A stretch of 64,000 nucleotides of DNA from Psilocybe cubensis (taxonomy: Eukaryota): the NCBI GenBank assembly GCA_017499595.2, contig CM039001.1:558001-622000 (forward strand), given 5' to 3'. The notes below the pieces were generated by a model. That model saw only the letters and a list, made by a program, of their open reading frames with translations. It was not told where the DNA came from and ran no database searches. Within the stretch, counting starts at the first letter, position 1; each line of letters starts with the position of its first letter. Of this stretch, positions 4,412 to 55,135 are shown in pieces. The translations under genes and the position numbers were made by a program.

Positions 4412-6645
4412 ATGGCGCTATTCCTTCCAGTTCTCCGCCTATTGATGCTGTTCCTGAATGTATATGACTCTTATAAGACACTGAAAGATCCACCACCGTC
4501 GTCACGCCATTCTGGGCGTCCAAGTGTACGTGCAGTGTCGCAAAGAAAGAGGGACATGAAAGGATGTTTGGCCGTATGGATTGTATGGGTGAGAAATATG
4601 GTCCTCTTGGAATCTATACTGCTAATCCAAACAATATATTCATTTAGGCCTCTCTTTCTATCTACGAACGAACGGTGGAATCTCTTATTTGCCTATTTAT
4701 ACCATTTTACGACGAAATCAAGAGCCTGGTCCTGTTATTTCTTATCTTGACTCGTGCAAGAGTCAGTGATCTTAATTTTGTAGGAATTTTTTACTTACTG
4801 ACCTTTTCTCAGGGAGCAGAACCCATATATTTGCATCTCATTCGACCACTCATTAAACCATACACAGGGACCCTCGATGCTACTTTAGAACTCGCGCTGA
4901 TGATCGGTGACTTCATCTTTGCGTTATCCACCTATCCTATTCGCGTTGCACTGGATTGGTATAAGAAGTTTTTCGGTTCGTACAGCGCCCTTCTTGTGAC
5001 TGAGGAAACAGAATCAGAGTCCAGTCCCTCATCCAATGACGTCAATACCTCTGAAGTAGCGACATCGTTCCTCGATACCTCTGGCATTGTTCCAGTGCCC
5101 TCCGATATTGATATACCACAATTACCCAAGACGAGCGTTCAAGTGAAGACTAGGATGCAGCCTCCAAGTCGACGCACGTCTGGTGATGCCACCGCGTCTC
5201 GACAAACCTCCAGCAAACAATCTTCCACGAGAAAACGGTCAGAAGTGGCGACCAATGCCAATTTAGAACCAAATTTCTTTGACTCCAAGAAAGCTCGAGA
5301 TCCTCTCAATCTTCGTTCAGGCTCTTCCTCCGAAAAGGTTGCGAAGCCACCTTTACATCATAGATCTTCTGGTAGCCCTAATCGCCCAGCTTCGAAAGCA
5401 TCCAAGCATACAAGGGAATCCGCCGAAGGATCATCATCCCTCCATCAAATTTGGTATCCACCGAGTTCTTCTTACGAGGACGAAGATCGGCACGTTCACG
5501 CTGATCAGACGATTCGAGCAAAACCAGTGGAACAAGATCCCCTTTTGACCCTCGAATATCAACAATATGAAGAATGGCGACAATATCCTGCATTTCCGTC
5601 AGCTTATCCCCCGACACCGCTTGCCACTACCTCAGCGCTCGCGACTATCTCAGTCGCTGCACCTTTGAACCTTCACCCAACTATTGCCGAAGAAACCCAG
5701 CAGGATTTTCGCCAGTCGCTCCTGCCGCCGCGTGAACCATTGAATCCCAATCACGCCGGCGACTTGAGCGACAGACACAGTATATATGGGATCACATCTC
5801 CTGACGTTGATGATGCAGATGATAGCATGTCAACTGACGATGAAGATGGCTATGAAGATGAGGATGAGTTTAACATCACCCTTCGGACACCACTTCCACC
5901 TTTTGGGTCGCTGAGGTCGCAAATTCAGCCTCGCCGATTGGTTTCTTTACCTTCAACTTCTTCAGCGCTGAGCGTGCCGAGTAGGTCATCAGCACTGACA
6001 ACAGCCGATAATGGATCATCACTGCCTTTGGGAACATCCTCCGACTCCTCTGCCCCCAAACCTAGTCTCAGTCCTTCCGTTATTGGCAAGAAAAGGTCGT
6101 ACCCGCGCTCAAAAATGCCTCTTATCAGTAACAGAGTTCGCCAAATCGAGGATGAGACATCGCAAGACCCGTCTTCCTCCGATCATGATTTACAGGACGT
6201 TACTACTACGTTGAAAAACGTGGTTCGCAAGTCCTCTTCTAGTCTATTAAAACTTACCGATGAAAGCGCTGCAGCATCGCCTAGTAGCCTCAGCGCCGCA
6301 GAGTTGCAAAATCAGGAACCACAAGACCAAATACCTCCTGAAGAAAAGAGGCGTAAAATTGTGCGATCTGTGCGACCTACAAGGGCTATCCACCCTTCTC
6401 GGCCTGTTCGACCTCGAGTTCCTCGGATCACTCCTCTGCCCCCACACTCGAAAAAAGGCAAAGCTGCAGTGTTACCTGGAGCAACCATCAACAGTGTCCC
6501 GATCCCCTCATTCCCCGGGTCAAATGTTGATAAGGTCAAAGAAAATGATGCCTCTCTCAGCGCATCGTCAGCTTCTGTTAGTGATGCCCCTCGACCTCGT
6601 ATTCCTAGTAGACCTCCCAAGCGGGCCTCCGTGCGCAAGCTTTGA
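4412..6645 (+). CDS. TB2/DP1/HVA22 (REEP/Yop1-like) domain protein with long disordered Ser/Pro-rich tail
   Basis: YDSYKTLK...MKGCLAVWIVW, FIPFYDEIKSLVLLFL, GAEPIYLHLIRP; two GT-AG introns near 4589 and 4763. Confidence 0.75.
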
Positions 6646-17662: not shown

Positions 17663-18387
17663 TCATGCTGTTTGGGGTGCGCTTTTGGATGGATCTTCGT
17701 CTTCCACCTCTTGTGCTTTTCGTTTGCCTTTGTTGCTACTGCTACCCGTAGTCTCGGATGCTCGACTTGGGTTTTCCTCAGTGTCATCTATTACTGGCGG
17801 AAGTGTATACGTGATCGGAAGAAGATCGCCTGTAGATTTCATGCGCCCGTTTGTTTTTGGTTTGTGTTTCGAAGAGTAAATAAAGATGATGTGATGATGG
17901 TACAAGAGCAAAGTAGATTTTATATTGAGAACAAACGAAACAAAAATGGAATGGATAATGGTAGGGAATGGATAGCGAATGTAGCTGCTTACCGGTTTCT
18001 TTGTCCCGAGCCTGCAAAAATATCGCTTCCCATCCTAAGAGGCCTGAGTCACGCAGCGTCTTTGTGGGCACCAGGAGGTCGTATTCGCCTGTCGGCCTCC
18101 CTCTTTCTCTCTTTGCGCGGCATAGCTCAAAGTCGTCCACAGTATCAATATTTAATTGCGGTGGGTCCATGGCAAATGGATCCAGCGCATCGTCAGCCAC
18201 GTCGGATTTGAGCGCTGAGAGCGTGTCGGCCTTGATTTCTGCCACCGTTGTTGTAGGTGGAAGGCTCGAAAGCATGATGCTAAGCTTATGGGTTTTCACC
18301 AACAAGTGGTGAGCCTTGACTATCCTGGGTGGCTACACAGCGTAATTGAGTCAATATATGTCATATATCAAGAATAAAACGTACCAT
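17663..18387 (-). CDS. Hypothetical protein (3 exons)
   Basis: ATG|intron|PPRIVKAHHLLVKTHKLSIMLSSLPPTTTVAEIK...IFLQARDKETG|DLLPITYTLPP; canonical introns, frames consistent. Confidence 0.7.
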
Positions 18388-18629
18388 GGTTGTATCGTGA
18401 GGGACGTCTTCGCCGCTTTATATTAGACTCGTGGAGTGGACGCGAGTAATATTGATTGTTCAAGAGGATACAAACTCCGCTAATAATTCCCACCCGCATC
18501 GCTTTCCCGACCAGTACCGTCGCTCCGTCACTGTCATTTGTAAATAGTTCTCTCTGAGGGAGACAACCGACTGCCACTGGCCACTGGACATCTTGTAACA
18601 CACCTTCTTATTTATCCAGACCGGGAAAT

Positions 18630-19348
18630 ATGAGTCAAGTGCACCAGCAAGGAGGGGTATACCCACCTAAGGAGTATGTTGAATCTGCACCCATGCCCGC
18701 CAACATTCCCCACGTCGACGAGGTCGGAGCAACGAGTGGCCCGCTGAAGAGTGCATCCTTCTTTATTGGAGCGTATTGCAAGGAGTATAACGGTTCGTAC
18801 GCGTATTCGGCGTGGGCGCTTGGTTACGGGTGGTTGATTTGATGCGGTTGTTCTTTGGTCTACAGAGGATTTCATGCTTTGCAAAAATGAGAATCGGGAC
18901 CCTGCTCACTGCTTGAAGGAGGGAAGGAAAGTTACGCGATGTGCTATAGATTTGTGCGTGTATTCAGAGTTTACTGTTGGGGCTTCATTGCTGAATGTCA
19001 GTTTGTATACAGGATAACAAAGATGCGCGAGAACTGTGCCCAACAGTTTGATGCACACTGGGAGTGTTTGGAGAAAAGGAACCAAGTACGCGGCTGTATC
19101 TATGCTTCAAAAAGACTCCTCTAATCTTGTTTACGCAGGAGTTCTATCTTTGCCGCAAACAAGAACGAAAGCTCAACTCGTGTATGTTTGAGAAACTTGT
19201 AAGTTGCTAAAGAACCTAAGGCCGTCTGTGTTAAAACATTGTTGATGAAATTCTGCAGGGTCTGACAAAAACCATTCCTGGATCACCAGCAGGCCAGCCC
19301 CAAATTCACGAGGTGCAGAACCCCATATACAAGCCCATTCAGAAATAG
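18630..19348 (+). CDS. NDUFA8: NADH:ubiquinone oxidoreductase alpha subcomplex subunit 8 (CX9C protein)
   Basis: IPHVDEVGATSGPLKSASFFIGAYCKEYN|EDFMLCKNENRDPAHCLKEGRKVTRC...CAQQFDAHWECLE...CRKQE. Confidence 0.95.
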
Positions 19349-20251
19349 AGTGTTTTACGCGCCGAGTACCGATATTCAATACCAGTGCGAGGTCGAAGGG
19401 TGGGAGATCGGCTATGTCAGGGTCCTCCTTACTCCTTATTCCCCATAGATGAAGGTCCTGTACTACACATAGCTGAAAGTGGAAGAAGAAACATTTCTCA
19501 TTTTTCCTTTTGGAACCATTCAGCAAGTTAGATCGGAGGTCGTGAAATGACCTTGCACACTTCCAAGTTCCTGCCCCATTCTCACCAGATATGTGTCTTC
19601 TCAAATCAACATTTTAAACTATCTTGAGTATCAGGTGTGGTGAATGAACATTCGGGTTGAATGACAATGGGCAGAACTTGGGATAACATGGGATATATGA
19701 AGTCGAGATATATATTAGCCCAGTCGCGGCAGCGACTATTAGTATTCCGGAGTTTCGCTCGTGGTTGAATTAAATAAATCAGGGAAGCTCTTGCCAAATA
19801 TTAATAAACTAAGCGGGCCGTTACACGGAAATGTGGTCTTCAAAACTCATTAAAATTTAGAGTCGACTTCTCTCGGAAAACGGACGGTTGACGCACGTGA
19901 GGAGGCGCGGCGTAACAGCCTGTCACCCCCCTCACTGTAAATGTGTCACGCTGACCGTCGTCTTCCATTTTGGGAAGGCGTGATGGTCGATCGTCACCTC
20001 GCTTTACGCATGTTTCGTACTCAACCTATTGCTCCCCGTTGCCTCTATACCTCTTTTATTCGCTTCTCCGTCTATCGTTACCGCTTTTGCTAATTTCTCT
20101 TAATTACAGATGCAACTATGACCTCATTTCCAAAGGCTTTGAATTGCCAGCAGCAGCAACATCAACAAATCCGATCAGGAATCTCTATGGACCTACGCTT
20201 GTGTTGGCTCTCATCTTTGTCTTGACAGTCCTCGCTCTTCTTCCTGGGGCA

Positions 20252-21935
20252 ATGGAAGAACTTCAAAGCATCAATAAGTCATCAATTCTGTTGGAGGTTG
20301 ATGTTGAGAAAGGGCCGCCTCAGTCAGATGCAAGCAGGCTTCCGCTTCCCGCTCAGTCCAAAGGAGGTTCAGGGATCACGGTTTGCTACGTCGATGTGTG
20401 AGTCTTTCTGTTTTTACTTATATATTCCATTTCTAATGTAGTTTTATAGTTTTAATATGAAGAAAGCTGATTTGGTAGACCTGTGTCGCCAATACAAGCT
20501 TCCTGTTTCCGGTACAATCAAGGTTCTTATCGAGAGATTACAGGAGTTTAGTGGTCAGCGAGAACAATGGGACCGGTTAGCCTACTCTCTCTGTGCTTTC
20601 CTTCTAGGTGTTTATTATAGCTAATCTATTCCTACAAGACTCACTACAGGTGTTGCTCGTCGTTCTCATCTTGGGTTTAGCACCCATTCTTCTACAAAAC
20701 CAACAGCCAGCCACAAAAAGTCAGTGCAGCGTCGTGAAAAAATGTTTTTGGAGTCAACAAATACAGAAAATGGCAATCCGAAATCTCTTCCATCTATTCT
20801 ATCAACGGCAGTTCAGCCCTCTCATCAATGGTGTCAAACTCGTCGAGCTGCCGATCTTGATTGGGTACGCATGTTGTATATTTGTTTAGTTGCCCTACAA
20901 CTCATACTAAGCCCTCATTTGATGCTACAGGCACGTTATATTGTCAATTTATACCCATATCGTAGAGAAGAAACTAGGAATAGGTTGGCAGAGCGTGATG
21001 CGGCACAATTTAATCAGAAACGACTGGTAAGTAGTAAACATTCTTATTATTGTTTTATCATTAATTGTATCTATATATCTAGTTCTCAAGCTCAAATGAC
21101 GATGACGTTAAGGCTGGGATTGAGATAGCGAATGGCCATCTCTTAAAAATTGTCAACTGGGTTGAAGCTGGGACTACTTCTCCTCATCCAACTCCATCGC
21201 CCTCTCATCAGCTTCAACCAAGCACATCCCACTTTTCGGTGGCAGCTACTAAGGATTTGCAAAATTCTCAAGGTCATTCAATTTCTGCTTCTACCACAAC
21301 CACTCCTACTCGCACAGTAACTATGGCTAGTGGATCTATTACTTTTTCATCATCCGATGTTCCACCACCACCCGCTGTTTCATTTGCTTCTGATATTCCT
21401 GGATTGAATCGCATGTGGGACGATACAAGCATTTATTGGGATGGATATTCTGTGCTTACAATTAAGGGAACGGCCATTCCTATTGTATACTGGAAGGAGA
21501 TATACACCTCTAAGGGTAGTGTTGAATGGAAGCCGAAGCAGTGGGAGTCACTCAAAGGGAAATTTTTTGATTGGAAGGTAACTGGCTAATGTTCATTCTT
21601 GAATCTTGATGAATATGTTTTGACCGCTTTTTGCTCAGATTCTTGTCCATCAATGGCGACAAGGATCTCCCGAAGATTTCTGGGCTAAATTCACCAAAGA
21701 CGGCAAGATACTGGGCTATCGTCAAATTCTTGATCAACTCGCTGAACAAAGAACTGCTCATGATGCACTTTTTGCACAACAGATTATGCACGAGTATGGT
21801 AATCAATTTTCATCTATTTTTTCTTATGTTAAGAATGGGACAAGACATGTCAAGACAAAACCTTGTCATATTATTAAGCAGTACCGTAGGATGAAGGGTC
21901 TCATTAACGAAGACGACAATGATGAGGATAATTAG
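20252..21935 (+). CDS. SAP-domain protein with Trp-rich C-terminal domain (element gene 1, about 6 exons)
   Basis: Spliced: MKKADLVDLCRQYKLPVSGTIKVLIERLQEF (SAP consensus), ARRSHLG, LNRMWDDTSIYWDG...IPIVYWKEIY...QWESLKGKFFDWK|ILVHQWRQGSPEDFWAKF...DEDN*; start codon uncertain. Confidence 0.8.
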
Positions 21936-21984
21936 TTGATTATGTTTTTGCTCCAATATCTTACATCAATTATATATAATTTTA

Positions 21985-23668
21985 CTATGCACAGTGACAT
22001 GTTCGTCCACACATAAAGCACTTGACTGCAGGTGGTTTATCAGAATTAAAAAAGTCTTCTCGACGCTGTGTTGGGTTATCATTCCAAGATATTAGATATC
22101 TCACAATAGTGAGATTAGAAAATTCAGTACTCCATCCACCCCATTCACAAATAGTGCGAATAGACCAACGTCTTTCTGATGAAAGGTATTGGCAACCACC
22201 ACGACGGAAAGAGTGTGTTCCATATGGTATTGGATCAACGCCAATATCAAGAAGATTGTTTCGGAACAGCTCAAGAAATTGCTCTGATGTCTATTTGAAT
22301 GAGAAATAAGTAGAAGCATTTGTATAAATAGCATACCATGGGTATGTTATCAGCCGATGGCCTATCCCCAGATGCAATCTTTCGAAAAATGTAGCCATCG
22401 GTAATCTCGCTTGCATCAAGCCAATTTGCCATTGCACGAACAGGACAAAGATGAGCCTCATTTTCTGCTAGTAACCGCAGATAAAATGGCTTAATTCCTA
22501 AAGAAATATATATTAGAATAGACTTCAAATAGTTTAAAAAAGTTTTACCGCCATGCTGATGTGTTTTGCGAAATGGTAGTGTAAGAACCAGTCCAGGTGG
22601 ATTCATCTGATAAACAATATGTTCACGTCGGATTTTCAATACCTCATCTGATCGGAGTAGACAGAGAAAAGCAATTGTATAAATTGCCTCAAGAGCGCGT
22701 CGGGCTAATCCTCCTCCCCAATGGTTGCTATCTTGTTCTTTTCTAGACCCTGGAGCATAGGGTTTGATATCATAGTTTTCGGATTTATGATTTTCATCAT
22801 AAAGAGCTTTTAGAGTAGCTGAGGTGATTGCGCGTGCACTTGTTGGTGTTTCACCATTTCGAATCTAAAAAGGAGATATATAGTCAAAACTACAGCCAAT
22901 CAAGCAATTTGAGTGCAACTTGAACATTACCTTCCGAGCACGCAAACTCATCATGTATGTTGCTACGGTGTCGGATACTGATGGATTTCCTATCATTTTA
23001 CCCGTAAGCTCATTTCTTCTCCACCTATCTGAGCCTAAACCAAGTTCACGTCCAAAAAGATATGTCATAGACGCTCTCATCTTTTGGCCATGTACATAGG
23101 AATCACGGACAACATGTGTTGGCTTTAAAGTTCCATCAAGATAAATATCATCGCATCTAGAAAATACGGTAGTTTGAAAAAAATTCCAATAGAGAAAATC
23201 AATAAGCTTACTTGTCCATAATCCATGCCGCAATGAAAAAAGGTGCATCGTCGGGTGGATTGCAACAAGCAAAATCTTCACGTTTTTTAATCATGTTCTT
23301 GCTAATCAGAAACTTGATACATTGCTTGATAAGACTAGAATAAAAACAAAATAAGCGCACTATTTAGAAATGAAGACAGGATAGTATTACCGCTGATAAT
23401 CAGCATCAGTTTTGTCTGTGACTCCTTTAGATGCACCAGTAATTGTATCTCGCCACTTGGAAGCTGTTGGATTGTGGCTATCTAAATCTTCACTAGAAAG
23501 ATCATGAAGTGACAGATTGGGCAGAGTCTCTGTTTCACCGTCGAGATCGTTTTCAACGTCTTCTGGTATAAATGGTTCATTTTCAATAGTAGGAGAAGGA
23601 CTGCCAGATATAATGGAGTTTAGACCGGCATAGATTGAGTTTGAGGGCACCACCATTGAGGAAAGCAT
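21985..23668 (-). CDS. Tyrosine recombinase (DNA breaking-rejoining enzyme; element gene 2, multi-exon)
   Basis: Catalytic set in order: FLCLLRSDEV (R), PFRKTHQ (K), YGTHSFRRGG (HxxR), EWGGW (W), IVRYL (Y); also GNPSVS..YMMSL and HLCPVRA; ends CFMCGRTCHCA*; start approximate. Confidence 0.9.
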
Positions 23669-23883
23669 AGTAGGGATTAGATTTAAGAAATTGTAGCGGA
23701 AAGGAGTACACTGATTAGAATATATACTTTTGTAAAGCTTACTGCGGACAAAACAGATAGGAGTAGTAGACTCATTTGAAACACATTGTAAGAAGGCAAT
23801 TTACAGCAAGGAGGCGATCTAGTGGCATTATGGTGAAGACACGCTCAAACACGTAAAAAAACAAATATAAGCCATACCTAATT

Positions 23884-25484
23884 CTAAATACCCTCCATCA
23901 TATTACTTGGAATCCATGCACGTAGCTTTGGAAGACAATTTTGAATCCAAGAATCGACACTTGATTGATCAAATCGAGGATTTTCTTGAGCCGCTCGAAG
24001 CCTATTAATGCCATCTTGAATAATGTCTTTTGGAAAATCAATCTTGACACGTAATTCCGGAGAGCGCTTGCTAGATTGTCGCTTCCCAACAATTTGGCCA
24101 AAAAACATGTGGCCATAATAATGAAAGCCAATATCCCGAGCTCGAGCAATTTGCATTGCCGACCTAAGTGCAATTCCAGGAAGAATGCTGTTAGACAGGT
24201 GGCGTAACATAACCACAGCATCTGTACCCCATACGAAATGATCTTCGGCAAATAGCATCATGGCTGGAAGAGATAGTTGACGAGAAAAAAGAACTGGAAT
24301 GAGATCATCGGATACAACAGGATGGAGATAATAGCTTAGTATATCGGAAGAGGGAAAGTCTGCCGGAAGATTGTGGGCCAAAGATGGGCAGCGGCGAGGT
24401 AAATGAAATGAAGAATTGCTATGAGCTTCACTTATTAGCTGGCTTCGCCATTCATGTAGGAATTGTTGCTGTGCTTCTTGACTGTAGTTGTTTTCCTTAA
24501 GGCCACACGCTAGTGATCGACCAAAACCAGCTTTTGCAAGTCCAAGTGCTGTTTCAATGCCACAGCCTTTGACTCCACCCTTAATAAAAAAAAGTTATAA
24601 TACAATTAATAGAAAGAATAAATTGGAAAATTACAGGATTGTAGTCGCCACCAACCAATAGTGCAATAAGAACCATATCCTCGCTATTCATCTGAAGAGC
24701 TTGAAGAATATCAGATGATCGATATACAACCACCTGTTCATCATCGGACACATCTTCATCGCTATTAAAATGCCATATTAAAATTTAGATTGAGTTGAGC
24801 TAAAAGTGTACTTACATTCGCAAGACAGTTGTGGTACCAAATACAATACTATCAGAGTCTTCTGTAAGAACGGCATCGAGATAGTCCTCCTTTGTAAGTC
24901 TGGCAAGCTCCGCTTCAGCTTCACCAGGTGCCTATTCCCATAATATGTATGAGCCGCCCAAGCCTTAGGCTACTGCAATAACCAATAAAGAACATACCTC
25001 ACACCAAATAAAACCGTAAGCATCTAACAGCGATTTGAAATCAGCTTCAATCCAGTGGCGATTTCCCCTTATGTTCTTTTTGCGCTTTATACTTGGTTTG
25101 TTGGGGCCATCAAAGACAAAGATGGGCAGAATAGGAAGCGAGTATAGGCGGCTACAGCGAGCATTTAGAGTAGCAAGCTCCATATTCTTTGTAGCACCGT
25201 GTCGGTAGCATGCACGGTAAATCCACCCCCTATTGTCAATAACACCGAATCAATTTATGTTTTTGAAAAAGAAATCAACAATATATACATACATTGCATC
25301 AACACCAAGCCTATATCCTCGGGTTCCTTGACGGTTTGACATAAATCCATCCTCAACAGCCAGACGTTGAAACGAGGCTCGTGTTGCTACAGGGTCTAGT
25401 AGCTACATAAATCCAATCTGTCAGCAGCTACGTGCAAGAGTCATAGAAAGTCATACGCACCTTCCACAGGCCTTTAACGCCCAT
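23884..25484 (-). CDS. XPG/Rad2-family PIN nuclease, GEN1/Yen1-like (element gene 3, multi-exon)
   Basis: MGVKGLWK|LL, LGVDA, IFVFDGPNKPSIKR, APGEAEAELA, DAVLTEDSDSIVFG, IALLVGGDYNP|GGVKGCGIETA, FPSSDILSYYLHPVVS, RAWIP; 3' end may include a further exon. Confidence 0.88.
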
Positions 25485-26410
25485 CGTATGGAGGCTAAAC
25501 GAAAGCTAGATCAATAGCGGACAAAAGATAGATATAAGATAAACCCACCCGAAATGTTTTGCAAATGTCTAAGCATCAATGTCTGTGAACAGAAACGCAT
25601 ACAGACCACGATAATGAGCCAAACTATTACAAAAGGGGTATTATTTGAGCAAAGATTGTGATCTACACAAAAAACTCAAGAGTTCTAGCTGTAATTTAAA
25701 ATAAATCATATTAATTTTGTAAAAGCGGAGTAGTAGAACAAATGCACGGCAATAAACACCTCATGCTAGCCATACAGAAGCGCCTCGGCCCAGGGATGAT
25801 CCTTAGTTTCTTCTGTACGGCTAGCATGTGGTGCCTAGCAGACACGGCAATATAATAGAATAATATTTTTCAGTACTTGAAAAGCACAACCATAGGCCTG
25901 TGTACGTGTCTGCATGCATGCGAAGAAAGGATTTGAGGTGGCGGCAGTGATGCAAGGAAAGATGATGGATGGTGTGAATGTGTATCTATAGCTTATACTC
26001 AGTAATACGAATAAAATCAAGAATCAAAGAAGAGGGCACTGGCAGCCTAGTGTATGCCCAGGCATGAGTATTCCTGGGCTGCCATTGTGCGACGAAAAGG
26101 ATGGGGGTATTCCATAATAAAGTATCAGAACACACCTAGATTCCAATTCTATCCTCTACGTAGCACCCTAAATCAAACAATCTAGCTTGCGCTGCAGGGC
26201 AATTTGCATGACTAAACGGCTCCGTTGAGCGACAACACTGCAAAAAAAATGCTAAGATACTTACCGGAGTGAGCCTCTTGACCAACCTACGAGACAGACG
26301 TATCTCATAAATTATAGCACCACACAGCTGATGGAGGGAGATGTGCATGGATGGGACGCAAGGAGGAGGTGCATGAACGGGAGAGAGCAGGAATCATCGA
26401 TTCAACCAAC

Positions 26411-26521
26411 ACGCGTGCCAGCACTACACGTGATTGGACGTGCTGATTGTAATTCACGCGACTCCTGTAAATTCACGCGACTCCTGTAAGATTCACGCGA
26501 CTCCCTGGTTAAAACACGCGT
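26411..26521. promoter_or_regulatory. Cluster of ACGCG cores: three ATTCACGCGACTCC direct repeats flanked by two ACGCGT (copy 2 at 33958-34068)
   Basis: Repeats at 26452, 26471, 26491; ACGCGT at 26411 and 26516; CACGTG and ATTGG nearby; function is inferred. Confidence 0.5.
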
Positions 26522-27798
26522 TACGCACGTTGTATATGGCAGTGTCGTGCCTCGGCAGCAGGCATTAGTGTAGTACGTGAGATAACAAGGTGTGAACGTC
26601 ATTCTCTCACTATGAACTGTCTTTTTTTACAGTAGAACTGTCTTTTATTGGCCCAATTGAGGTAAGCTTGATGCCGTATTTGCCTTCTGATCGTCATTTC
26701 TGAGCCTTGGCTCAATTTCGTAGTTTCCAATCTCGCCAATTAGTCAATACGTTAGTCACACCAATCCACGGCAATCCACCCTACGTAAAAAAGAATGTTT
26801 TATTGTTCAATTCTACGGTTATGGTGTGTAGTGCGGCATTGAACCTTAAGCTTAGCCAAACTCAAAACCCACTGCCCTCCTGCGAGGAATTTCTCTATGG
26901 AACGGGTCCCTTGAACGTGCTCCAGCAAACTCTAAGTTTTTACAGAAGGTCAGAATCTGAGTCGTAATAATATGTCATATTAGTTAGATCCGGTAAACTA
27001 CAAATCAGCACGAATATGTAGCTTTAAAACAAGCCTTGTTCCCCCTCTCCTTCTTTCCATCTTTCTGCGTCCGTCGTCGGTGTCAAAGCATCTCGAAAAA
27101 AATGCCTGTTGCAATTGATTCATCCGCCCTAGTATGGCAGTGAGTAGGGTTTTATGTACTATCTGGTCGCAAGCTTGCTCCATGCTTTTACTGTTACTTG
27201 TGCCCTCAGAACTTTTCGTTTTTCTTGCTGCTGCCATCCCGAGGCCCTCCACGGCGACGCCGTTTGAACCCGTTTTGAGTGATCGAGGGCACCTCGGCAC
27301 ACCTCTCGTGCGAGGGTTGTGCGAGGGTTAGGGTCGATCGTAACGCTGTGACCGATGGCGCCGATCGCTTTGTCAGGCTGTGCCAACCGTCTTTCTGCTC
27401 GGTCGCAGCTGTACTTCTCTCGGAAAACGGACGGTTGACGCACGTGAGGAGGCGCGGCGTAACAGCCTGTCACCCCCCTCACTGTAAATGTGTCACGCTG
27501 ACCGTCGTCTTCCATTTTGGGAAGGCGTGATGGTCGATCGTCACCTCGCTTTACGCATGTTTCGTACTCAACCTATTGCTCCCCGTTGCCTCTATACCTC
27601 TTTTATTCGCTTCTCCGTCTATCGTTACCGCTTTTGCTAATTTCTCTTAATTACAGATGCAACTATGACCTCATTTCCAAAGGCTTTGAATTGCCAGCAG
27701 CAGCAACATCAACAAATCCGATCAGGAATCTCTATGGACCTACGCTTGTGTTGGCTCTCATCTTTGTCTTGACAGTCCTCGCTCTTCTTCCTGGGGCA

Positions 27799-29482
27799 AT
27801 GGAAGAACTTCAAAGCATCAATAAGTCATCAATTCTGTTGGAGGTTGATGTTGAGAAAGGGCCGCCTCAGTCAGATGCAAGCAGGCTTCCGCTTCCCGCT
27901 CAGTCCAAAGGAGGTTCAGGGATCACGGTTTGCTACGTCGATGTGTGAGTCTTTCTGTTTTTACTTATATATTCCATTTCTAATGTAGTTTTATAGTTTT
28001 AATATGAAGAAAGCTGATTTGGTAGACCTGTGTCGCCAATACAAGCTTCCTGTTTCCGGTACAATCAAGGTTCTTATCGAGAGATTACAGGAGTTTAGTG
28101 GTCAGCGAGAACAATGGGACCGGTTAGCCTACTCTCTCTGTGCTTTCCTTCTAGGTGTTTATTATAGCTAATCTATTCCTACAAGACTCACTACAGGTGT
28201 TGCTCGTCGTTCTCATCTTGGGTTTAGCACCCATTCTTCTACAAAACCAACAGCCAGCCACAAAAAGTCAGTGCAGCGTCGTGAAAAAATGTTTTTGGAG
28301 TCAACAAATACAGAAAATGGCAATCCGAAATCTCTTCCATCTATTCTATCAACGGCAGTTCAGCCCTCTCATCAATGGTGTCAAACTCGTCGAGCTGCCG
28401 ATCTTGATTGGGTACGCATGTTGTATATTTGTTTAGTTGCCCTACAACTCATACTAAGCCCTCATTTGATGCTACAGGCACGTTATATTGTCAATTTATA
28501 CCCATATCGTAGAGAAGAAACTAGGAATAGGTTGGCAGAGCGTGATGCGGCACAATTTAATCAGAAACGACTGGTAAGTAGTAAACATTCTTATTATTGT
28601 TTTATCATTAATTGTATCTATATATCTAGTTCTCAAGCTCAAATGACGATGACGTTAAGGCTGGGATTGAGATAGCGAATGGCCATCTCTTAAAAATTGT
28701 CAACTGGGTTGAAGCTGGGACTACTTCTCCTCATCCAACTCCATCGCCCTCTCATCAGCTTCAACCAAGCACATCCCACTTTTCGGTGGCAGCTACTAAG
28801 GATTTGCAAAATTCTCAAGGTCATTCAATTTCTGCTTCTACCACAACCACTCCTACTCGCACAGTAACTATGGCTAGTGGATCTATTACTTTTTCATCAT
28901 CCGATGTTCCACCACCACCCGCTGTTTCATTTGCTTCTGATATTCCTGGATTGAATCGCATGTGGGACGATACAAGCATTTATTGGGATGGATATTCTGT
29001 GCTTACAATTAAGGGAACGGCCATTCCTATTGTATACTGGAAGGAGATATACACCTCTAAGGGTAGTGTTGAATGGAAGCCGAAGCAGTGGGAGTCACTC
29101 AAAGGGAAATTTTTTGATTGGAAGGTAACTGGCTAATGTTCATTCTTGAATCTTGATGAATATGTTTTGACCGCTTTTTGCTCAGATTCTTGTCCATCAA
29201 TGGCGACAAGGATCTCCCGAAGATTTCTGGGCTAAATTCACCAAAGACGGCAAGATACTGGGCTATCGTCAAATTCTTGATCAACTCGCTGAACAAAGAA
29301 CTGCTCATGATGCACTTTTTGCACAACAGATTATGCACGAGTATGGTAATCAATTTTCATCTATTTTTTCTTATGTTAAGAATGGGACAAGACATGTCAA
29401 GACAAAACCTTGTCATATTATTAAGCAGTACCGTAGGATGAAGGGTCTCATTAACGAAGACGACAATGATGAGGATAATTAG
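27799..29482 (+). CDS. SAP-domain protein, copy 2
   Basis: Same ORF translations as 20252-21935 at offset +7547. Confidence 0.8.
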
Positions 29483-29531
29483 TTGATTATGTTTTTGCTC
29501 CAATATCTTACATCAATTATATATAATTTTA

Positions 29532-31215
29532 CTATGCACAGTGACATGTTCGTCCACACATAAAGCACTTGACTGCAGGTGGTTTATCAGAATTAAAAAA
29601 GTCTTCTCGACGCTGTGTTGGGTTATCATTCCAAGATATTAGATATCTCACAATAGTGAGATTAGAAAATTCAGTACTCCATCCACCCCATTCACAAATA
29701 GTGCGAATAGACCAACGTCTTTCTGATGAAAGGTATTGGCAACCACCACGACGGAAAGAGTGTGTTCCATATGGTATTGGATCAACGCCAATATCAAGAA
29801 GATTGTTTCGGAACAGCTCAAGAAATTGCTCTGATGTCTATTTGAATGAGAAATAAGTAGAAGCATTTGTATAAATAGCATACCATGGGTATGTTATCAG
29901 CCGATGGCCTATCCCCAGATGCAATCTTTCGAAAAATGTAGCCATCGGTAATCTCGCTTGCATCAAGCCAATTTGCCATTGCACGAACAGGACAAAGATG
30001 AGCCTCATTTTCTGCTAGTAACCGCAGATAAAATGGCTTAATTCCTAAAGAAATATATATTAGAATAGACTTCAAATAGTTTAAAAAAGTTTTACCGCCA
30101 TGCTGATGTGTTTTGCGAAATGGTAGTGTAAGAACCAGTCCAGGTGGATTCATCTAATAAACAATATGTTCACGTCGGATTTTCAATACCTCATCTGATC
30201 GGAGTAGACAGAGAAAAGCAATTGTATAAATTGCCTCAAGAGCGCGTCGGGCTAATCCTCCTCCCCAATGGTTGCTATCTTGTTCTTTTCTAGACCCTGG
30301 AGCATAGGGTTTGATATCATAGTTTTCGGATTTATGATTTTCATCATAAAGAGCTTTTAGAGTAGCTGAGGTGATTGCGCGTGCACTTGTTGGTGTTTCA
30401 CCATTTCGAATCTAAAAAGGAGATATATAGTCAAAACTACAGCCAATCAAGCAATTTGAGTGCAACTTGAACATTACCTTCCGAGCACGCAAACTCATCA
30501 TGTATGTTGCTACGGTGTCGGATACTGATGGATTTCCTATCATTTTACCCGTAAGCTCATTTCTTCTCCACCTATCTGAGCCTAAACCAAGTTCACGTCC
30601 AAAAAGATATGTCATAGACGCTCTCATCTTTTGGCCATGTACATAGGAATCACGGACAACATGTGTTGGCTTTAAAGTTCCATCAAGATAAATATCATCG
30701 CATCTAGAAAATACGGTAGTTTGAAAAAAATTCCAATAGAGAAAATCAATAAGCTTACTTGTCCATAATCCATGCCGCAATGAAAAAAGGTGCATCGTCG
30801 GGTGGATTGCAACAAGCAAAATCTTCACGTTTTTTAATCATGTTCTTGCTAATCAGAAACTTGATACATTGCTTGATAAGACTAGAATAAAAACAAAATA
30901 AGCGCACTATTTAGAAATGAAGACAGGATAGTATTACCGCTGATAATCAGCATCAGTTTTGTCTGTGACTCCTTTAGATGCACCAGTAATTGTATCTCGC
31001 CACTTGGAAGCTGTTGGATTGTGGCTATCTAAATCTTCACTAGAAAGATCATGAAGTGACAGATTGGGCAGAGTCTCTGTTTCACCGTCGAGATCGTTTT
31101 CAACGTCTTCTGGTATAAATGGTTCATTTTCAATAGTAGGAGAAGGACTGCCAGATATAATGGAGTTTAGACCGGCATAGATTGAGTTTGAGGGCACCAC
31201 CATTGAGGAAAGCAT
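29532..31215 (-). pseudogene. Tyrosine recombinase, copy 2, with premature stop
   Basis: Codon 30154-30156 reads TAG on the minus strand where copy 1 (22607-22609) has CAG (IVYQMN); lies between the catalytic R and K in one exon. Confidence 0.78.
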
Positions 31216-31430
31216 AGTAGGGATTAGATTTAAGAAATTGTAGCGGAAAGGAGTACACTGATTAGAATATATACTTTTGTAAAGCTTACTGCGGACAAAA
31301 CAGATAGGAGTAGTAGACTCATTTGAAACACATTGTAAGAAGGCAATTTACAGCAAGGAGGCGATCTAGTGGCATTATGGTGAAGACACGCTCAAACACG
31401 TAAAAAAACAAATATAAGCCATACCTAATT

Positions 31431-33031
31431 CTAAATACCCTCCATCATATTACTTGGAATCCATGCACGTAGCTTTGGAAGACAATTTTGAATCCAAGAA
31501 TCGACACTTGATTGATCAAATCGAGGATTTTCTTGAGCCGCTCGAAGCCTATTAATGCCATCTTGAATAATGTCTTTTGGAAAATCAATCTTGACACGTA
31601 ATTCCGGAGAGCGCTTGCTAGATTGTCGCTTCCCAACAATTTGGCCAAAAAACATGTGGCCATAATAATGAAAGCCAATATCCCGAGCTCGAGCAATTTG
31701 CATTGCCGACCTAAGTGCAATTCCAGGAAGAATGCTGTTAGACAGGTGGCGTAACATAACCACAGCATCTGTACCCCATACGAAATGATCTTCGGCAAAT
31801 AGCATCATGGCTGGAAGAGATAGTTGACGAGAAAAAAGAACTGGAATGAGATCATCGGATACAACAGGATGGAGATAATAGCTTAGTATATCGGAAGAGG
31901 GAAAGTCTGCCGGAAGATTGTGGGCCAAAGATGGGCAGCGGCGAGGTAAATGAAATGAAGAATTGCTATGAGCTTCACTTATTAGCTGGCTTCGCCATTC
32001 ATGTAGGAATTGTTGCTGTGCTTCTTGACTGTAGTTGTTTTCCTTAAGGCCACACGCTAGTGATCGACCAAAACCAGCTTTTGCAAGTCCAAGTGCTGTT
32101 TCAATGCCACAGCCTTTGACTCCACCCTTAATAAAAAAAAGTTATAATACAATTAATAGAAAGAATAAATTGGAAAATTACAGGATTGTAGTCGCCACCA
32201 ACCAATAGTGCAATAAGAACCATATCCTCGCTATTCATCTGAAGAGCTTGAAGAATATCAGATGATCGATATACAACCACCTGTTCATCATCGGACACAT
32301 CTTCATCGCTATTAAAATGCCATATTAAAATTTAGATTGAGTTGAGCTAAAAGTGTACTTACATTCGCAAGACAGTTGTGGTACCAAATACAATACTATC
32401 AGAGTCTTCTGTAAGAACGGCATCGAGATAGTCCTCCTTTGTAAGTCTGGCAAGCTCCGCTTCAGCTTCACCAGGTGCCTATTCCCATAATATGTATGAG
32501 CCGCCCAAGCCTTAGGCTACTGCAATAACCAATAAAGAACATACCTCACACCAAATAAAACCGTAAGCATCTAACAGCGATTTGAAATCAGCTTCAATCC
32601 AGTGGCGATTTCCCCTTATGTTCTTTTTGCGCTTTATACTTGGTTTGTTGGGGCCATCAAAGACAAAGATGGGCAGAATAGGAAGCGAGTATAGGCGGCT
32701 ACAGCGAGCATTTAGAGTAGCAAGCTCCATATTCTTTGTAGCACCGTGTCGGTAGCATGCACGGTAAATCCACCCCCTATTGTCAATAACACCGAATCAA
32801 TTTATGTTTTTGAAAAAGAAATCAACAATATATACATACATTGCATCAACACCAAGCCTATATCCTCGGGTTCCTTGACGGTTTGACATAAATCCATCCT
32901 CAACAGCCAGACGTTGAAACGAGGCTCGTGTTGCTACAGGGTCTAGTAGCTACATAAATCCAATCTGTCAGCAGCTACGTGCAAGAGTCATAGAAAGTCA
33001 TACGCACCTTCCACAGGCCTTTAACGCCCAT
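31431..33031 (-). CDS. GEN1/Yen1-like XPG nuclease, copy 2
   Basis: Same ORF translations as 23884-25484 at offset +7547. Confidence 0.88.
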
Positions 33032-34989
33032 CGTATGGAGGCTAAACGAAAGCTAGATCAATAGCGGACAAAAGATAGATATAAGATAAACCCACCCGAA
33101 ATGTTTTGCAAATGTCTAAGCATCAATGTCTGTGAACAGAAACGCATACAGACCACGATAATGAGCCAAACTATTACAAAAGGGGTATTATTTGAGCAAA
33201 GATTGTGATCTACACAAAAAACTCAAGAGTTCTAGCTGTAATTTAAAATAAATCATATTAATTTTGTAAAAGCGGAGTAGTAGAACAAATGCACGGCAAT
33301 AAACACCTCATGCTAGCCATACAGAAGCGCCTCGGCCCAGGGATGATCCTTAGTTTCTTCTGTACGGCTAGCATGTGGTGCCTAGCAGACACGGCAATAT
33401 AATAGAATAATATTTTTCAGTACTTGAAAAGCACAACCATAGGCCTGTGTACGTGTCTGCATGCATGCGAAGAAAGGATTTGAGGTGGCGGCAGTGATGC
33501 AAGGAAAGATGATGGATGGTGTGAATGTGTATCTATAGCTTATACTCAGTAATACGAATAAAATCAAGAATCAAAGAAGAGGGCACTGGCAGCCTAGTGT
33601 ATGCCCAGGCATGAGTATTCCTGGGCTGCCATTGTGCGACGAAAAGGATGGGGGTATTCCATAATAAAGTATCAGAACACACCTAGATTCCAATTCTATC
33701 CTCTACGTAGCACCCTAAATCAAACAATCTAGCTTGCGCTGCAGGGCAATTTGCATGACTAAACGGCTCCGTTGAGCGACAACACTGCAAAAAAAATGCT
33801 AAGATACTTACCGGAGTGAGCCTCTTGACCAACCTACGAGACAGACGTATCTCATAAATTATAGCACCACACAGCTGATGGAGGGAGATGTGCATGGATG
33901 GGACGCAAGGAGGAGGTGCATGAACGGGAGAGAGCAGGAATCATCGATTCAACCAACACGCGTGCCAGCACTACACGTGATTGGACGTGCTGATTGTAAT
34001 TCACGCGACTCCTGTAAATTCACGCGACTCCTGTAAGATTCACGCGACTCCCTGGTTAAAACACGCGTTACGCACGTTGTATATGGCAGTGTCGTGCCTC
34101 GGCAGCAGGCATTAGTGTAGTACGTGAGATAACAAGGTGTGAACGTCATTCTCTCACTATGAACTGTCTTTTTTTACAGTAGAACTGTCTTTTATTGGCC
34201 CAATTGAGGTAAGCTTGATGCCGTATTTGCCTTCTGATCGTCATTTCTGAGCCTTGGCTCAATTTCGTAGTTTCCAATCTCGCCAATTAGTCAATACGTT
34301 AGTCACACCAATCCACGGCAATCCACCCTACGTAAAAAAGAATGTTTTATTGTTCAATTCTACGGTTATGGTGTGTAGTGCGGCATTGAACCTTAAGCTT
34401 AGCCAAACTCAAAACCCACTGCCCTCCTGCGAGGAATTTCTCTATGGAACGGGTCCCTTGAACGTGCTCCAGCAAACTCTAAGTTTTTACAGAAGGTCAG
34501 AATCTGAGTCGTAATAATATGTCATATTAGTTAGATCCGGTAAACTACAAATCAGCACGAATATGTAGCTTTAAAACAAGCCTTGTTCCCCCTCTCCTTC
34601 TTTCCATCTTTCTGCGTCCGTCGTCGGTGTCAAAGCATCTCGAAAAAAATGCCTGTTGCAATTGATTCATCCGCCCTAGTATGGCAGTGAGTAGGGTTTT
34701 ATGTACTATCTGGTCGCAAGCTTGCTCCATGCTTTTACTGTTACTTGTGCCCTCAGAACTTTTCGTTTTTCTTGCTGCTGCCATCCCGAGGCCCTCCACG
34801 GCGACGCCGTTTGAACCCGTTTTGAGTGATCGAGGGCACCTCGGCACACCTCTCGTGCGAGGGTTGTGCGAGGGTTAGGGTCGATCGTAACGCCGTGACC
34901 GATGGCGCCGATCGCTTTGTCAGGCTGTGCCAACCGTCTTTCTGCTCGGTCGCAGCTGTACTTCTTCAAACGAAAAGGGCACAGGAGCT

Positions 34990-37840
34990 ATGGCGAGCTC
35001 CATTATAAACGAAACTTTTGTCCTCGCCAATTATACGTCGTCTGCGCGAGGAAAATCCACGAAAAAATACACTCCTGGAGTCTATGCGACCTCCACGAAA
35101 AAAAATAGTAACAGCGCGGACGGATATGTTACGGTAGCTGTTCAGGCAGACGGTGTGCATGTTTTGGATGTGAGTAATACTGATTCATATGTCGCTGGTC
35201 AAACCTAAAGATTCGACTGCTGCAGACTTCCGATCTTCACCCAGTGACTTCGCAAACTCTGGGGCCATCGACGTCTTTTTCGTGCCCACCATTGACATTA
35301 CCATCTTCCTCGAATCATCCTTCAAGAACATACGCTATCATATCAACTTCTCCAGAACTGGCATCATCTGACGACGGGGGACGTACATTGTGGGTATGGA
35401 GCGACGATGCATCAAAATCCAAACAAAAAGCGAAGCAGAGCAAAGTCATAGTGCGTACCCCACCAGCGCCATCGCTATTTTGCAAAGCCAATTGACTGGA
35501 AGATGAACACAGCTTTCGAAAGATCACCCTGCTTTTGGAATATACGCAAGCACAGAGCTTCCGGAAAGATTGATTGCATTGTCCACCAATGGAGAAGTTG
35601 CTGTGGTAGATGCAGAGAGCCTTGAAGTGAAATCATCAATACAACAGTCAACTTTATCCAACGTTATCCACGCGACTGTGCTACCTGCCAGTACATCACC
35701 CTTTGGAAGAGGTTTAAATGGCTCCATTCTGGTTGTTGCCTCTGCTGGATCGTCAAAAAATACACATTTAAGAATATTGGCCATCGACGAAGCCGACTCA
35801 ATATCTCAAGAACAGGAACATGAACTTTCCATAGATAGCGAGGCACGTTCAAGCATTTTGATCATTATTTTTCCTCATTGACGCGCCCCATCCATGTAGA
35901 GCATTGTCAATTTGTCTTGTAGCGAGACAGGAATTCTCAGCGTGCTTTGTGCGTGTTAATTTCGATTCGTCATCTTAAAAAAATCGCTGGCACAGTCTGA
36001 TCATAACATATCACTCTAGGCACCGACGGATCGTTGTCATCGTACAGACTGCCATCTGGACCCTCTTCTTCACCAGCAGAACTCTCCCCTCCCCTCCGCC
36101 TCACCAACCTGTCTTTCATTTCTCAACCTTCCAGATATACTTCCTCAATTCTTTCCCTGACTTCCTCCCACGTCCTTCTTGCAGCAGTTGCCACTCAAGA
36201 GGTCGTTCTTCTGTTATGGGATCTCCAATTCTCTGTGCTCCTCGCGTCGCATTCATTACCTATACCAACCACCCTGAATTCCTCGGCTCTGCATGTTAGA
36301 TTAGTCCAAGGCTCTCAAACGCTCACAAAAACGGAAACGCAAGCCATTGGCCAAGCCATCCTTATTCTTTCATCTATGCCTTCGTCAGATTCTTCAGAAT
36401 CTAAAAACAACAAAACGAGCTCTGTGCTGGTTGTTGTTCCATACTCTGTACCTGTTCAGTCGACAATTGCGGCCGCAATGGGCAAGGGCGATGCCGGATC
36501 TAAATGGCTTCGTGTGCCAGGCGAAGAGGCGACAGCGGCTCAACAAAGTCCAGAGGAGAAAGCCAAAGCAAAGTTGTTGAGCACGATGAGAACGGCGATG
36601 CAGGGCGGACGTCCTCAGGCAGCTGTTGCGGCGTTCATGAAGTGGGCACCTAAGCCGGAGACTGATAAGGTATGTTTCTTGGGAACATCATTCTATTTGC
36701 AGTTATTAATTAAAGTTTCCTAGAATGTTGCTTCGACGTTGGAATATAACTTTGTTAAGGAGCTGTTGAGTATAGTGTTGCTTGATCTATCACCAGGAAC
36801 GAAGCCCACGCCAGGGAACTATCAACCTGATGTTGTGCGGTATCTCCTCGAGCAACGGGTCGTATGCAGTGCTATGATTTCGACTCCAGGAGGCCTCTTA
36901 GGCGCTTTGAGAGCAAGAGATGATTGGGTGACAATACTTTCTTGTTAATTTCTAGTGAACGTAGCGCTAACCGATTTATACTAGACATCCATTGAACTGG
37001 CGTTCTACACTGTGCTCGACCTGACCGAATCCGAGATCGTCGAAACACTTTTTGCAGTCGTACACGTACACCACTCGTCAGTCGCCCCTTCATCATCCAC
37101 TGCTACAACAAAACCTGCCACAGAGGATGCCATGGACGTCGACCCACCTACGTCACCTCAGAAAACCACTCAAAAACCTGCTTCATATAATACTGTCCCC
37201 TCTCTTCCTGTCACCCTCGCACTGCTCGCATCATACCCCACGTCGCGTGGCCCGCTTCTCGTTGCGTTCCGCCGGTATTTTGTGGATGCGGCGGATATCA
37301 CGGCTCTGCTTCAGGTTTTGGAGACCTGGGTTGCGAAGAAGACAAGGGCGGATGAGAGGCTGCTGCCAACTAAGAAAGATCTGAAAAAGACGGAGCAAGG
37401 CGTGTGGGTCGTCGTTGGTCGGAAAGGGGACAAAGAAAAAGAAAAGAAGAGGGACGAGGTTCCTTCGCTCCAAAAGGTCGGTTTCATTATTGTCAATTAA
37501 TGTTCTGTTTAATTCTGATGTGTGATGCGAATAGGCTGTTGACCTTATTCAACTACTTCTTGATGCATCATTCCTTTCTCTCCTTACGCACGCACCAGCG
37601 CACAAGATTCTTCGCAAGTTGCAAGACCAACTGAACCCTGAAATTAGTTTCGGGAGCGCCGCCGAAACGCTACGCGGCCCGCTTGAGCCGTTCGCCATCG
37701 CACAAGAGAAGACACTCAAGGAATCGTTGGTGCCCGCGCAGGAGAGGGAAAAGGAGAAACAGAAAGGTGATTGGCGCCAGAGGAGGAAAGAGCTGGCGGT
37801 GGATGTGGGCCTGTACAAATTGGAGGAGCTGGTGCTTTAG
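34990..37840 (+). CDS. Probable UTP8/NOL11-like SSU processome (t-UTP) protein, multi-exon
   Basis: Beta-rich N-half (YVTVAVQADGVHVLD, LWVW, LLLWDLQFSVLLA), LDLTESEIV, LLDASFLSLL and C-terminal GLYKLEELVL*, resembling the Y-x-x-E-x-L end I recall for Utp8/NOL11. Confidence 0.62.
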
Positions 37841-54800: not shown

Positions 54801-55135
54801 ATGAAGAAAAGAGACATCAGAATGACATTAACTGGAATATAGACGACAACTCACCATCATAGTGGTGGATGATATTGTCAGGAATCTCGACAGCAAAGGC
54901 GTTGACGATGGTGTTGACGGCTCTTCCGCCAGTTCCATAGCCAGGTCTCCTTACTCCGATTGTTTTTACATGGTGAGCTAAATGAAAGATCAGGACAGTT
55001 GATGAAGACGGCGATGAACAGACCTTGAGTGGCAATTGCACCTCCGCGGGCCGCCGCTCCGCCGCGTACAGGACCACCAGCACCTCTGATTGCGGGACCG
55101 CCGCGACCACGACCAGCAGTGTTCTTTGGGGGCAT
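51888..55135 (-). CDS. Argonaute (QDE-2-like; N, PAZ, MID, PIWI), multi-exon
   Basis: RGG-rich start, [20 protein letters not shown]-type motif (INLDIS), [85 protein letters not shown]. Confidence 0.97.

Follow-up and report, generated by a model that had tools for sequence, protein, structure and literature searches.

What is the 7,547-bp unit that stands twice, head to tail, in a chromosomal contig of the mushroom Psilocybe cubensis, and by what route could it have come to lie there? The two units occupy positions 19866 to 34965 of a 64,000-nucleotide stretch (GenBank assembly GCA_017499595.2, contig CM039001.1, positions 558,001 to 622,000 of the forward strand), hereafter called the window, whose numbering is used throughout. 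Each unit encodes a tyrosine recombinase (YR), a partner protein with a SAP domain and a GEN1/Yen1-like XPG nuclease, and the six bases ACTTCT stand at the left boundary, at the junction of the units and at the right boundary. A first-pass annotation of the window had read this arrangement as a compact, recently active element that excises, circularizes and integrates. Our analysis makes it very probable that the unit is an autonomous P. cubensis DNA transposon and that, like a Crypton, it depends for its movement on site-specific recombination by a tyrosine recombinase. The case rests on its exact boundaries, an empty site, copies at several loci, polymorphism between strains, conserved termini and core, its gene content and the motifs of its YR.

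Empty sites and further copies in Psilocybe cubensis

Sequences of four runs (X5, X6, X9 and X10) were aligned to the left flank, unit 1 and 68 bases of unit 2; the runs stem from three studies, none of which is the possible source study. All four runs contain an empty site with one ACTTCT, in which window position 19871 is followed by 30 letters identical to 34966-34995; this is exactly the single-core allele that removal of the element had been predicted to restore. For X5, X6 and X10, depth over the unit is zero except at a repeat of approximately 50 nt (26030-26087), which identifies these strains as free of the element, and in the raw-read run X10 the empty site is crossed by 22 reads. 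Run X9 combines an empty site at this locus with a 7,484-base contig that carries a diverged copy from elsewhere in the genome, differing by 51 substitutions and four small deletions. The left flank of this copy is different and again abuts ACTTCT, and from the tandem repeat at 26451-26504 the copy lacks exactly 19 bases, the length of one repeat unit. When the X9 copy is laid on 19866-27356, 28 of the 37 listed substitutions are C to T or G to A, and 16 of those 28 fall at CpG. These substitutions, taken with the lower CpG content of the unit (observed/expected 0.81, against 0.95 in the flanks), fit the decay of a methylated repeat.

Within the annotated P. cubensis genome, genes for the SAP protein, the YR and the nuclease carry consecutive locus tags on three contigs. 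JR316_0004294-4299 are the window's dimer, JR316_0001126-1130 follow the order SAP, YR, nuclease, SAP, YR, and JR316_0006113-6115 form a single set of three genes. The second SAP model on the 4.68-Mb contig (P0040) owes its first 13 residues to sequence in the tail of a unit, so that locus appears to be arranged head to tail as well; a SAP model of another assembly (P0042) has the same kind of 13-residue start from the unit tail. The first-pass annotation had suggested looking for other insertions with the same termini, and the X9 copy, with its other flank and its start at ACTTCT, answers to that description at its left end. At the protein level, the start of model P0039 (M-T-S-L-G-K-R) would fit an ATG at the end of the flank, with ACTTCT and the head of the element after it. 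A 1,599-amino-acid model from another P. cubensis assembly (P0044) fuses telomerase reverse transcriptase (TERT) to the SAP protein of the element; since TERT lies outside the window, this model implies a further insertion site just downstream of TERT. We conclude that the element is a mobile insertion whose presence varies among strains.

Boundaries and structure of the two units

A repeat search of the window returned one direct-repeat family, with a spacing of 7,547, and base-by-base comparison of the units found two mismatches in 7,547 positions (22609 G versus 30156 A, and 27347 T versus 34894 C). Identity between the units ends exactly at 19866 on the left and on the right reaches exactly six bases, ACTTCT, beyond 34959. 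The doubled 7,547-bp unit and the three ACTTCT contexts reported at first pass are thereby borne out. Beside the cores lie subterminal motifs (Table 1), and across the junction the GACGGT of the tail motif pairs with the head motif as an imperfect inverted repeat, whose arms of 13 nt are 38 nt apart. The repeat search found neither long terminal repeats nor terminal inverted repeats of the element, and inverted repeats of at least 40 nt were not found in 15000-40000. The GC content of the unit is 0.42, against 0.45-0.47 in the flanks. The insertion is intergenic, 25 bp upstream of an ATG-led multi-exon open reading frame (ORF) that starts at 34990 on the plus strand.

Table 1. Positions of the two units, their cores, motifs and genes in the window.
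Feature	Position	Strand	Remarks
Unit 1 of the element	19866..27412		7,547 bp; starts with core ACTTCT; from repeat comparison
Unit 2 of the element	27413..34959		Two differences from unit 1; from repeat comparison
Left core ACTTCT	19866..19871		attL-like; empty allele breaks exactly after 19871
Junction core ACTTCT	27413..27418		Head to tail; equivalent to a circle junction
Right core ACTTCT	34960..34965		attR-like
Head (SAP-gene side) subterminal motif	19872..19895; again 27419-27442		On the YR strand, ACCGTC-N6-7-CCGAG, then AGAAGT
Tail subterminal motif	27379..27412; again 34926-34959		On the YR strand, AGAAGT-N3-GCTGCGACCGA-N7-9-GACGGT
SAP-domain partner gene, unit 1	20252..21935	+	Six exons; 461 aa in the shortest model (P0041); tentative 5' end
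YR gene, unit 1	21985..23668	-	Six exons; 469 aa; intact; identical to P0038 letter for letter
GEN1/Yen1-like XPG nuclease gene, unit 1	23884..25484	-	Six exons; 434 aa (P0031)
19-bp tandem repeat	26451..26504; also 33998-34051		2.8 copies of AATTCACGCGACTCCTGTA; in the 1.9-kb non-coding spacer upstream of the nuclease
SAP-domain partner gene, unit 2	27799..29482	+	
YR gene, unit 2	29532..31215	-	Broken by a nonsense change at 30156
GEN1/Yen1-like nuclease gene, unit 2	31431..33031	-	Sequence identical to unit 1

Several observations concern the surroundings and the non-coding parts of the element. The stretch at 26030-26087 can form a hairpin (DNA fold of -14.4 kcal/mol, z -2.3) and recurs at several places elsewhere in the element-free genomes, as loose ends to its left and right in X5, X6 and X10 indicate; it is probably a small dispersed repeat. 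Upstream of the insertion, ORFs at 18558-19124 (+) have no Pfam match at E up to 0.01 and are presumably CHCH-like, to judge from their Cys motifs. Rfam returned no RNA features in 18000-37000, and no tRNA was found anywhere in the window. Farther to the right, GC content rises to 0.55-0.58 in 52001-56000, and the region from 56 to 62 kb has strong, opposite GC skews (-0.17, then +0.22 to +0.25), with several short tandem repeats at 56.3-59.0 kb.

Genes of the unit

Genes were mapped exon by exon, through exact spliced mapping of database proteins onto the window. Each unit holds three six-exon genes with introns of 46-66 nt, and the exon translations match P. cubensis proteins: a nuclease exon is 100% identical to P0031, annotated as "Flap endonuclease GEN-like protein 1," and the SAP protein matches P0034, P0035 and P0041. 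The G-to-A difference at 30156 (22609 in unit 1) converts YR codon 295 from Q to a stop in unit 2, leaving only the recombinase of unit 1 intact. As this change is not at a CpG, it is not attributed to methylation. The earlier description of three intron-containing genes per unit is thus correct in outline and needs amending for the YR of unit 2.

Outside the three genes, none of eight ORFs in the 1.9 kb from the nuclease start to the unit end and in the first 0.4 kb of the unit matches Pfam. The unit therefore contains no reverse transcriptase (RT), gag or DDE transposase, in agreement with the first-pass annotation. Pfam matching of the unit's ORFs found no replication gene either.

Database models differ in where they begin the SAP gene. 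Models P0034, P0040 and P0042 have a first exon of 13 amino acids at 27102-27139 (also 34649-34687), in the tail of the preceding unit, which is joined across the unit junction to 27657 by a 517-nt intron. Such a transcript could come only from a tandem or circular form, as the exon lies on the far side of the junction. Comparison with the homolog P0036 suggests that the real start of the SAP protein may instead be the Met at 20252.

What the three proteins are

Alignment of 19 YR sequences identified the likely catalytic residues as conserved columns (R280, K309, H394 and R397 of an HxxR motif, W421 and Y433), and Y433 would be the nucleophile. The family profile matches the catalytic domain of a solved integrase (3nkh; 5.8e-4). 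Phage_integrase matches 4 of 18 YR members below its curated cut-off, and NDC10_II gives a weak match in 1 of 18 (E 0.0066). The nearest Atlas structure cluster of the YR model is a basidiomycete "Ndc10 domain-containing" group (TM 0.70), alongside phage-integrase folds. No GCR1_C was detected in the YR proteins (0/18 at E up to 0.1; 0/5 at E up to 1), and where CryptonF has this domain, the C-terminal end of the YR is a Cys-rich tail. Even with E allowed to reach 1, no YR protein matches DUF3435, and the element proteins have no Pfam matches to DUF3504, RT or RNase H.

The nuclease carries XPG_I (1.4e-19) and XPG_N (1.6e-8) in Pfam. Its closest solved structure is GEN1 of Chaetomium thermophilum (5cnq/6grb; E 4e-47 over residues 1-295), followed by Rad2 (5.8e-17), and the acidic active-site residues are kept in the motifs GVDA, FVFDG, GEAEAE, TEDSDS and GGDY. 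No match to the GEN1_C chromodomain family was found in the nuclease at E up to 1; the AlphaFold model, built from a five-row alignment, has a pLDDT (predicted local distance difference test score) of 44, too poor to judge a chromodomain.

The third protein combines a SAP motif with a conserved Trp-rich C-terminal domain of approximately 180 residues. The SAP domain in the partner exon of the window matches at E 1.6e-8, and 30 of 84 family members have a SAP match. With an E threshold of 0.001, a family profile of 36 rows retrieves 1,261 cluster representatives; 820 of them score at most 1e-10 and 274 at most 1e-30. Against sequences of the Protein Data Bank (PDB), the same profile returned only SAP-type matches (MKL1 0.24, SIZ1 1.7) and PDCD5 (0.072) in the linker, with none for the C-terminal domain. 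AlphaFold modeled this domain with a pLDDT of 95.9. The partner C-terminal domain is thus a confidently predicted fold from a large unannotated protein family, and the model has no clear match among solved structures. An identification of the partner protein as GCR1_C was considered on account of an Atlas feature score of 0.87 in its favor; none of the 84 members matches that family, and the assignment was set aside as unconfirmed.

A family in mushroom-forming fungi

Metagenome contigs were scanned with the YR alignment, which matched 554 stretches, 231 of them encoding relatives; the counts that follow use the best 80 loci. In 53 loci the sequence extends at least 800 bp beyond the YR on its downstream side, and 38 of these have a SAP-protein gene that is convergent and no more than 1.5 kb downstream. 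The SAP-protein gene is upstream on the same strand in two loci, as in the fused Suillus model P0016, and upstream on the other strand in five. The nuclease was found upstream on the YR strand in two (L002 and L010) of the 19 loci with at least 2 kb upstream, and likewise in the fused Cyclocybe model P0004. Its position and orientation are the same in all four known cases, which belong to at least three clades on a rough YR tree (FastTree, 91 rows; 18 rows with less than 75% coverage and P0001/P0002, duplicates of the window, left out). The conserved core of the family is a YR with a SAP-domain partner, and the GEN1-like nuclease is an optional third gene in some lineages. For the three-gene linkage that the first-pass annotation had suggested testing, this means that the YR-SAP pair holds up in relatives and the nuclease does not.

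The slot of the nuclease can be filled otherwise. Loci L011 and L040, a copy pair 92-94% alike over approximately 7 kb, have histone H3-like ORFs in that position, so the cargo of the slot varies; these ORFs, at L040 7926-8431 and in the corresponding part of L011, match Pfam Histone at 2.7e-19 and 2.5e-10. A complete two-gene element (YR and partner) of 5,496 bp stands between two AGAAGT in L063, and tandem arrays of approximately 160 bp lie upstream of the YR genes in L063 and L080. Named relatives come from Agaricales, Boletales and Russulales. Among 46 candidate stretches from viral contigs there were no relatives.

Both ends of the element recur in this family. The tail-end motif, AGAAGT-N3-GCTGCGACCGA-N7-9-GACGGTC, was found in the window and five loci at up to two mismatches, compared with 0.03 expected from 30 shuffles, and in seven loci at up to three mismatches, compared with 0.6 in shuffles. 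The head-end motif, ACCGTC-N6-7-CCGAG with AGAAGT, gave 13 matches in 12 loci (0.07 in shuffles); AGAAGT was part of the search pattern, which accounts in part for how constant the core is at head ends. At seven tail ends of loci, the six-base core is AGAAGT in five, GGAAGT in one and TGAAGT in one. Flanks outside the conserved termini are unrelated throughout. The recurrence of the same six bases at insertions that are independent of one another, and in different species, excludes a variable target duplication. At the left edge of L025 (34-120), a head end, AGAAGT and a tail end follow one another, and the same head end returns 5,311 bp on (5345-5386), next to an unrelated flank. In this distant relative outside Psilocybe, the layout suggests either a tandem copy or an assembly derived from a circle, with a unit of 5,311 bp.

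The literature that we searched, with Repbase and paper supplements outside the search, contains no description that links a YR with a GEN1/XPG nuclease or a SAP protein in Agaricomycetes, and tyrosine recombinases are not mentioned in PMC9674265. The element apparently belongs to a widespread and undescribed two-gene, Crypton-like YR transposon family of Agaricomycetes, and in the window it would be a young tandem dimer that carries a GEN1-like nuclease. The first-pass annotation had not recognized its gene set as a described family, and that much stands within the reach of this search, with the correction that the nuclease is not a core gene.

Mechanism and origin of the dimer

We propose that the YR pairs both ends of the element, each with its conserved subterminal motif beside the 6-bp core ACTTCT. 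Strand exchange within the core would yield a circle with one ACTTCT and leave one ACTTCT in the chromosome, and the circle could then recombine with another genomic ACTTCT. Each end of a resident copy would still hold one half of the site that belongs to the element, and a second circle entering there would produce a head-to-tail dimer. Sister-chromatid exchange mediated by the YR, or integration of a dimeric circle, could lead to a dimer as well. Most simply, the dimer in the window would be the product of a second recombination at the resident copy's own end. With regard to the other two proteins, domain content and linkage suggest that the partner protein is a DNA-binding accessory factor of the recombinase and that the nuclease may cut Holliday-junction intermediates or process circle intermediates.

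Several points weigh against this proposal. No joints were reported in the four runs, and neither circles nor excision events were observed. The earlier reading as a compact, recently active element is supported by the empty sites, the several loci, the conserved ends and the lack of RT and DDE genes, with the circle as its presumed intermediate. The suggestion that the dimer arose by re-entry of a circle or from a dimeric circle is consistent with the second tandem locus and with the junction in L025. The dimer is known from one assembly, and tail-head junctions could be inspected in two places, this assembly and L025. With one core per 1.4 kb of flanking sequence, the basis of target choice is left unexplained. 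At the right boundary of similarity between L011 and L040 there is no head motif, although a similar motif occurs 1.2 kb further in L040. The nuclease is absent from 17 of the 19 loci with at least 2 kb upstream and is therefore not required by the family. Finally, the function suggested for the partner finds no backing from known domains or folds: Pfam matches its C-terminal domain in 0 of 84 members, Foldseek of the domain model against the PDB gave no matches at E up to 0.001, and VIA-align found none of 48,161 chains with Z of at least 5 (best 3.5, with residues 1-72 barely covered).

A more ambitious version of the same proposal has an outside chance of being right. The family could constitute a self-contained eukaryotic recombination module and not a plain Crypton, in which the YR acts with a dedicated partner whose DNA-handling domain has a fold new to solved structures, and in some lineages with a Holliday-junction resolvase of their own that completes or biases the exchange. 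The circular or tandem form would be its expressed state, because the partner gene would acquire its promoter and first exon only where tail meets head. If this were true, the element would be an integrative, episome-like element of mushrooms and could offer a compact, programmable eukaryotic integrase system with a 6-bp core.

A more conservative possibility is that the element is real and the dimer is an artefact of assembly, in which case the locus would hold one unit and the second would derive either from a copy elsewhere that was collapsed or wrongly joined, or from a circular form that had been sequenced along. Near-identical 7.5-kb repeats are hard to assemble, and the occurrence of the dimer in one assembly only would suit this explanation. 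We nevertheless consider it improbable. That the units differ at two positions, once by a nonsense change, indicates two distinct copies, and the source-study runs X1-X4 contain all sampled words of a junction-spanning query. A tail-head junction is also needed by the gene model at a second locus of the same genome and by P0042 in another assembly, and one is present in the relative L025.

Somewhat less probable again is that the unit is a nuclear episome, or a replicon of the plasmid type, that has become integrated. It would then resemble the 2-micron circle of yeast and its Flp recombinase: a replicating circle would be the normal state, and the chromosomal and often multimeric copies would be by-products. 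Two of three loci are tandem, the junction is spanned by 2.5 kb of non-coding sequence with tandem repeats, and some gene models are complete only across it, all of which would suit a circular replicon. Copy number can rise despite conservative chemistry (PMC9977147), which would suit this explanation as well. Against it, depth over the unit is zero in the three strains that have no chromosomal copy, so free circles are absent there. No replication gene was found among the ORFs of the unit, the 46 candidate viral stretches hold no relatives, and the relatives are found in ordinary chromosomal surroundings, where their flanks are unrelated.

We reject, as having next to no likelihood, a host segmental tandem duplication through ACTTCT microhomology or a non-autonomous insert of another transposase with a 6-bp target duplication: a 6-bp microhomology would give the same three-fold ACTTCT pattern, but some strains have one ACTTCT and not even a single unit, the unit is present on three contigs, the same six bases recur at other insertions and in distant relatives, unlike a target duplication of the DDE type, and neither terminal inverted repeats nor a DDE gene was found.

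Comparison with known systems

The preferred reading, a transposon moved by its own YR, places the element closest to Cryptons. It has the structure by which Cryptons in the broad sense are defined, namely a YR, no RT or other transposase and short repeats that equal the target. Like them, it has an intron-containing YR gene, is without RT and long terminal repeats, and carries a 6-bp terminal direct repeat that is the target itself, of which the clean empty site keeps one copy. An active counterpart, described in PMC9977147, is CryptonF-1_cRei of Chlamydomonas, which ends in CACCG, targets CAYCG, excises cleanly and favors 5' UTRs and gene-proximal sequence; the element described here is similarly inserted near a gene start. 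The live events of CryptonF-1_cRei support the model of circle excision and integration for Cryptons, as set out in parts of PMC9977147 and PMC3212892, and the authors of the former state that, to their knowledge, active Cryptons were observed for the first time in their study.

The differences from CryptonF lie in the proteins. According to the relevant passages of PMC3212892, the CryptonF YR carries a C-terminal GCR1_C DNA-binding domain; the YR of this element is without one, and a separate, convergent SAP-domain partner is conserved instead. The accessory parts of Cryptons given in the relevant passages of both papers are a DDE transposase, a C48 peptidase, HTH or GCR1_C, and neither a SAP protein nor an XPG nuclease is in that list; a GEN1-like nuclease, present in some members of this family, is a difference to the same extent. 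An AGAAGT core and subterminal motifs of approximately 35 bp that are conserved family-wide, together with tandem copies, further distinguish the family from Cryptons. On the evidence of domain content, the element would fall outside CryptonF by its lack of GCR1_C, and equally outside CryptonA, Starships and DIRS/Ngaro. It is without the DUF3504, RT/RNase H and long repeats that would place it with CryptonA, DIRS or Ngaro.

Starships resemble the element in being fungal, mobilized by a YR, flanked by short direct repeats and capable of carrying cargo. They measure tens to hundreds of kb, compared with 5.3-7.5 kb in this family, and use a DUF3435 recombinase placed first at the element end, whereas the YR here is without DUF3435 and is the middle gene. 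Host range differs as well, since this family is one of Agaricomycetes, where Starships with boundaries were not found according to the sections of PMC11162782 that address the matter.

The family has exactly defined ends and a conserved 6-bp core, and in a mushroom that can be cultivated its presence differs from strain to strain. Eukaryotes have few active DNA transposons of the tyrosine-recombinase kind, and how these work has mostly been deduced, which makes such a family useful for study. Insertion 25 bp upstream of a putative gene start, at a site that differs between P. cubensis strains, also makes the element a source of strain variation.

In phage and integrative-element att systems, and in the yeast 2-micron Flp system, a circle and a chromosome cross over in a short identical core with recombinase-binding repeats alongside, an accessory DNA-binding protein is encoded beside the recombinase, and multimers form through the element's own site. 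The element shares with these the short core at which crossover would take place, the accessory gene beside the recombinase and the multimers, with recombinase binding and the circle being presumed here. It differs in its eukaryotic host (from att systems), in its spliced genes and in a target of only 6 bp. Pfam, Foldseek and VIA-align gave no sign that the partner protein is homologous to excisionases, Rep or Raf proteins. Conserved accessory genes could explain how elements of this kind choose direction and resolve junctions.

The nuclease, finally, resembles GEN1/Yen1 resolvases in having XPG_N and XPG_I, in being closest to CtGEN1 and in keeping the acidic residues. It differs from them in its length of only 434 amino acids and in being encoded by a transposon, in identical copies, and no GEN1_C match was found in it at E up to 1. 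A GEN1-type resolvase carried by a transposon next to its YR would bear directly on the question of whether eukaryotic YR elements complete both strand exchanges themselves.

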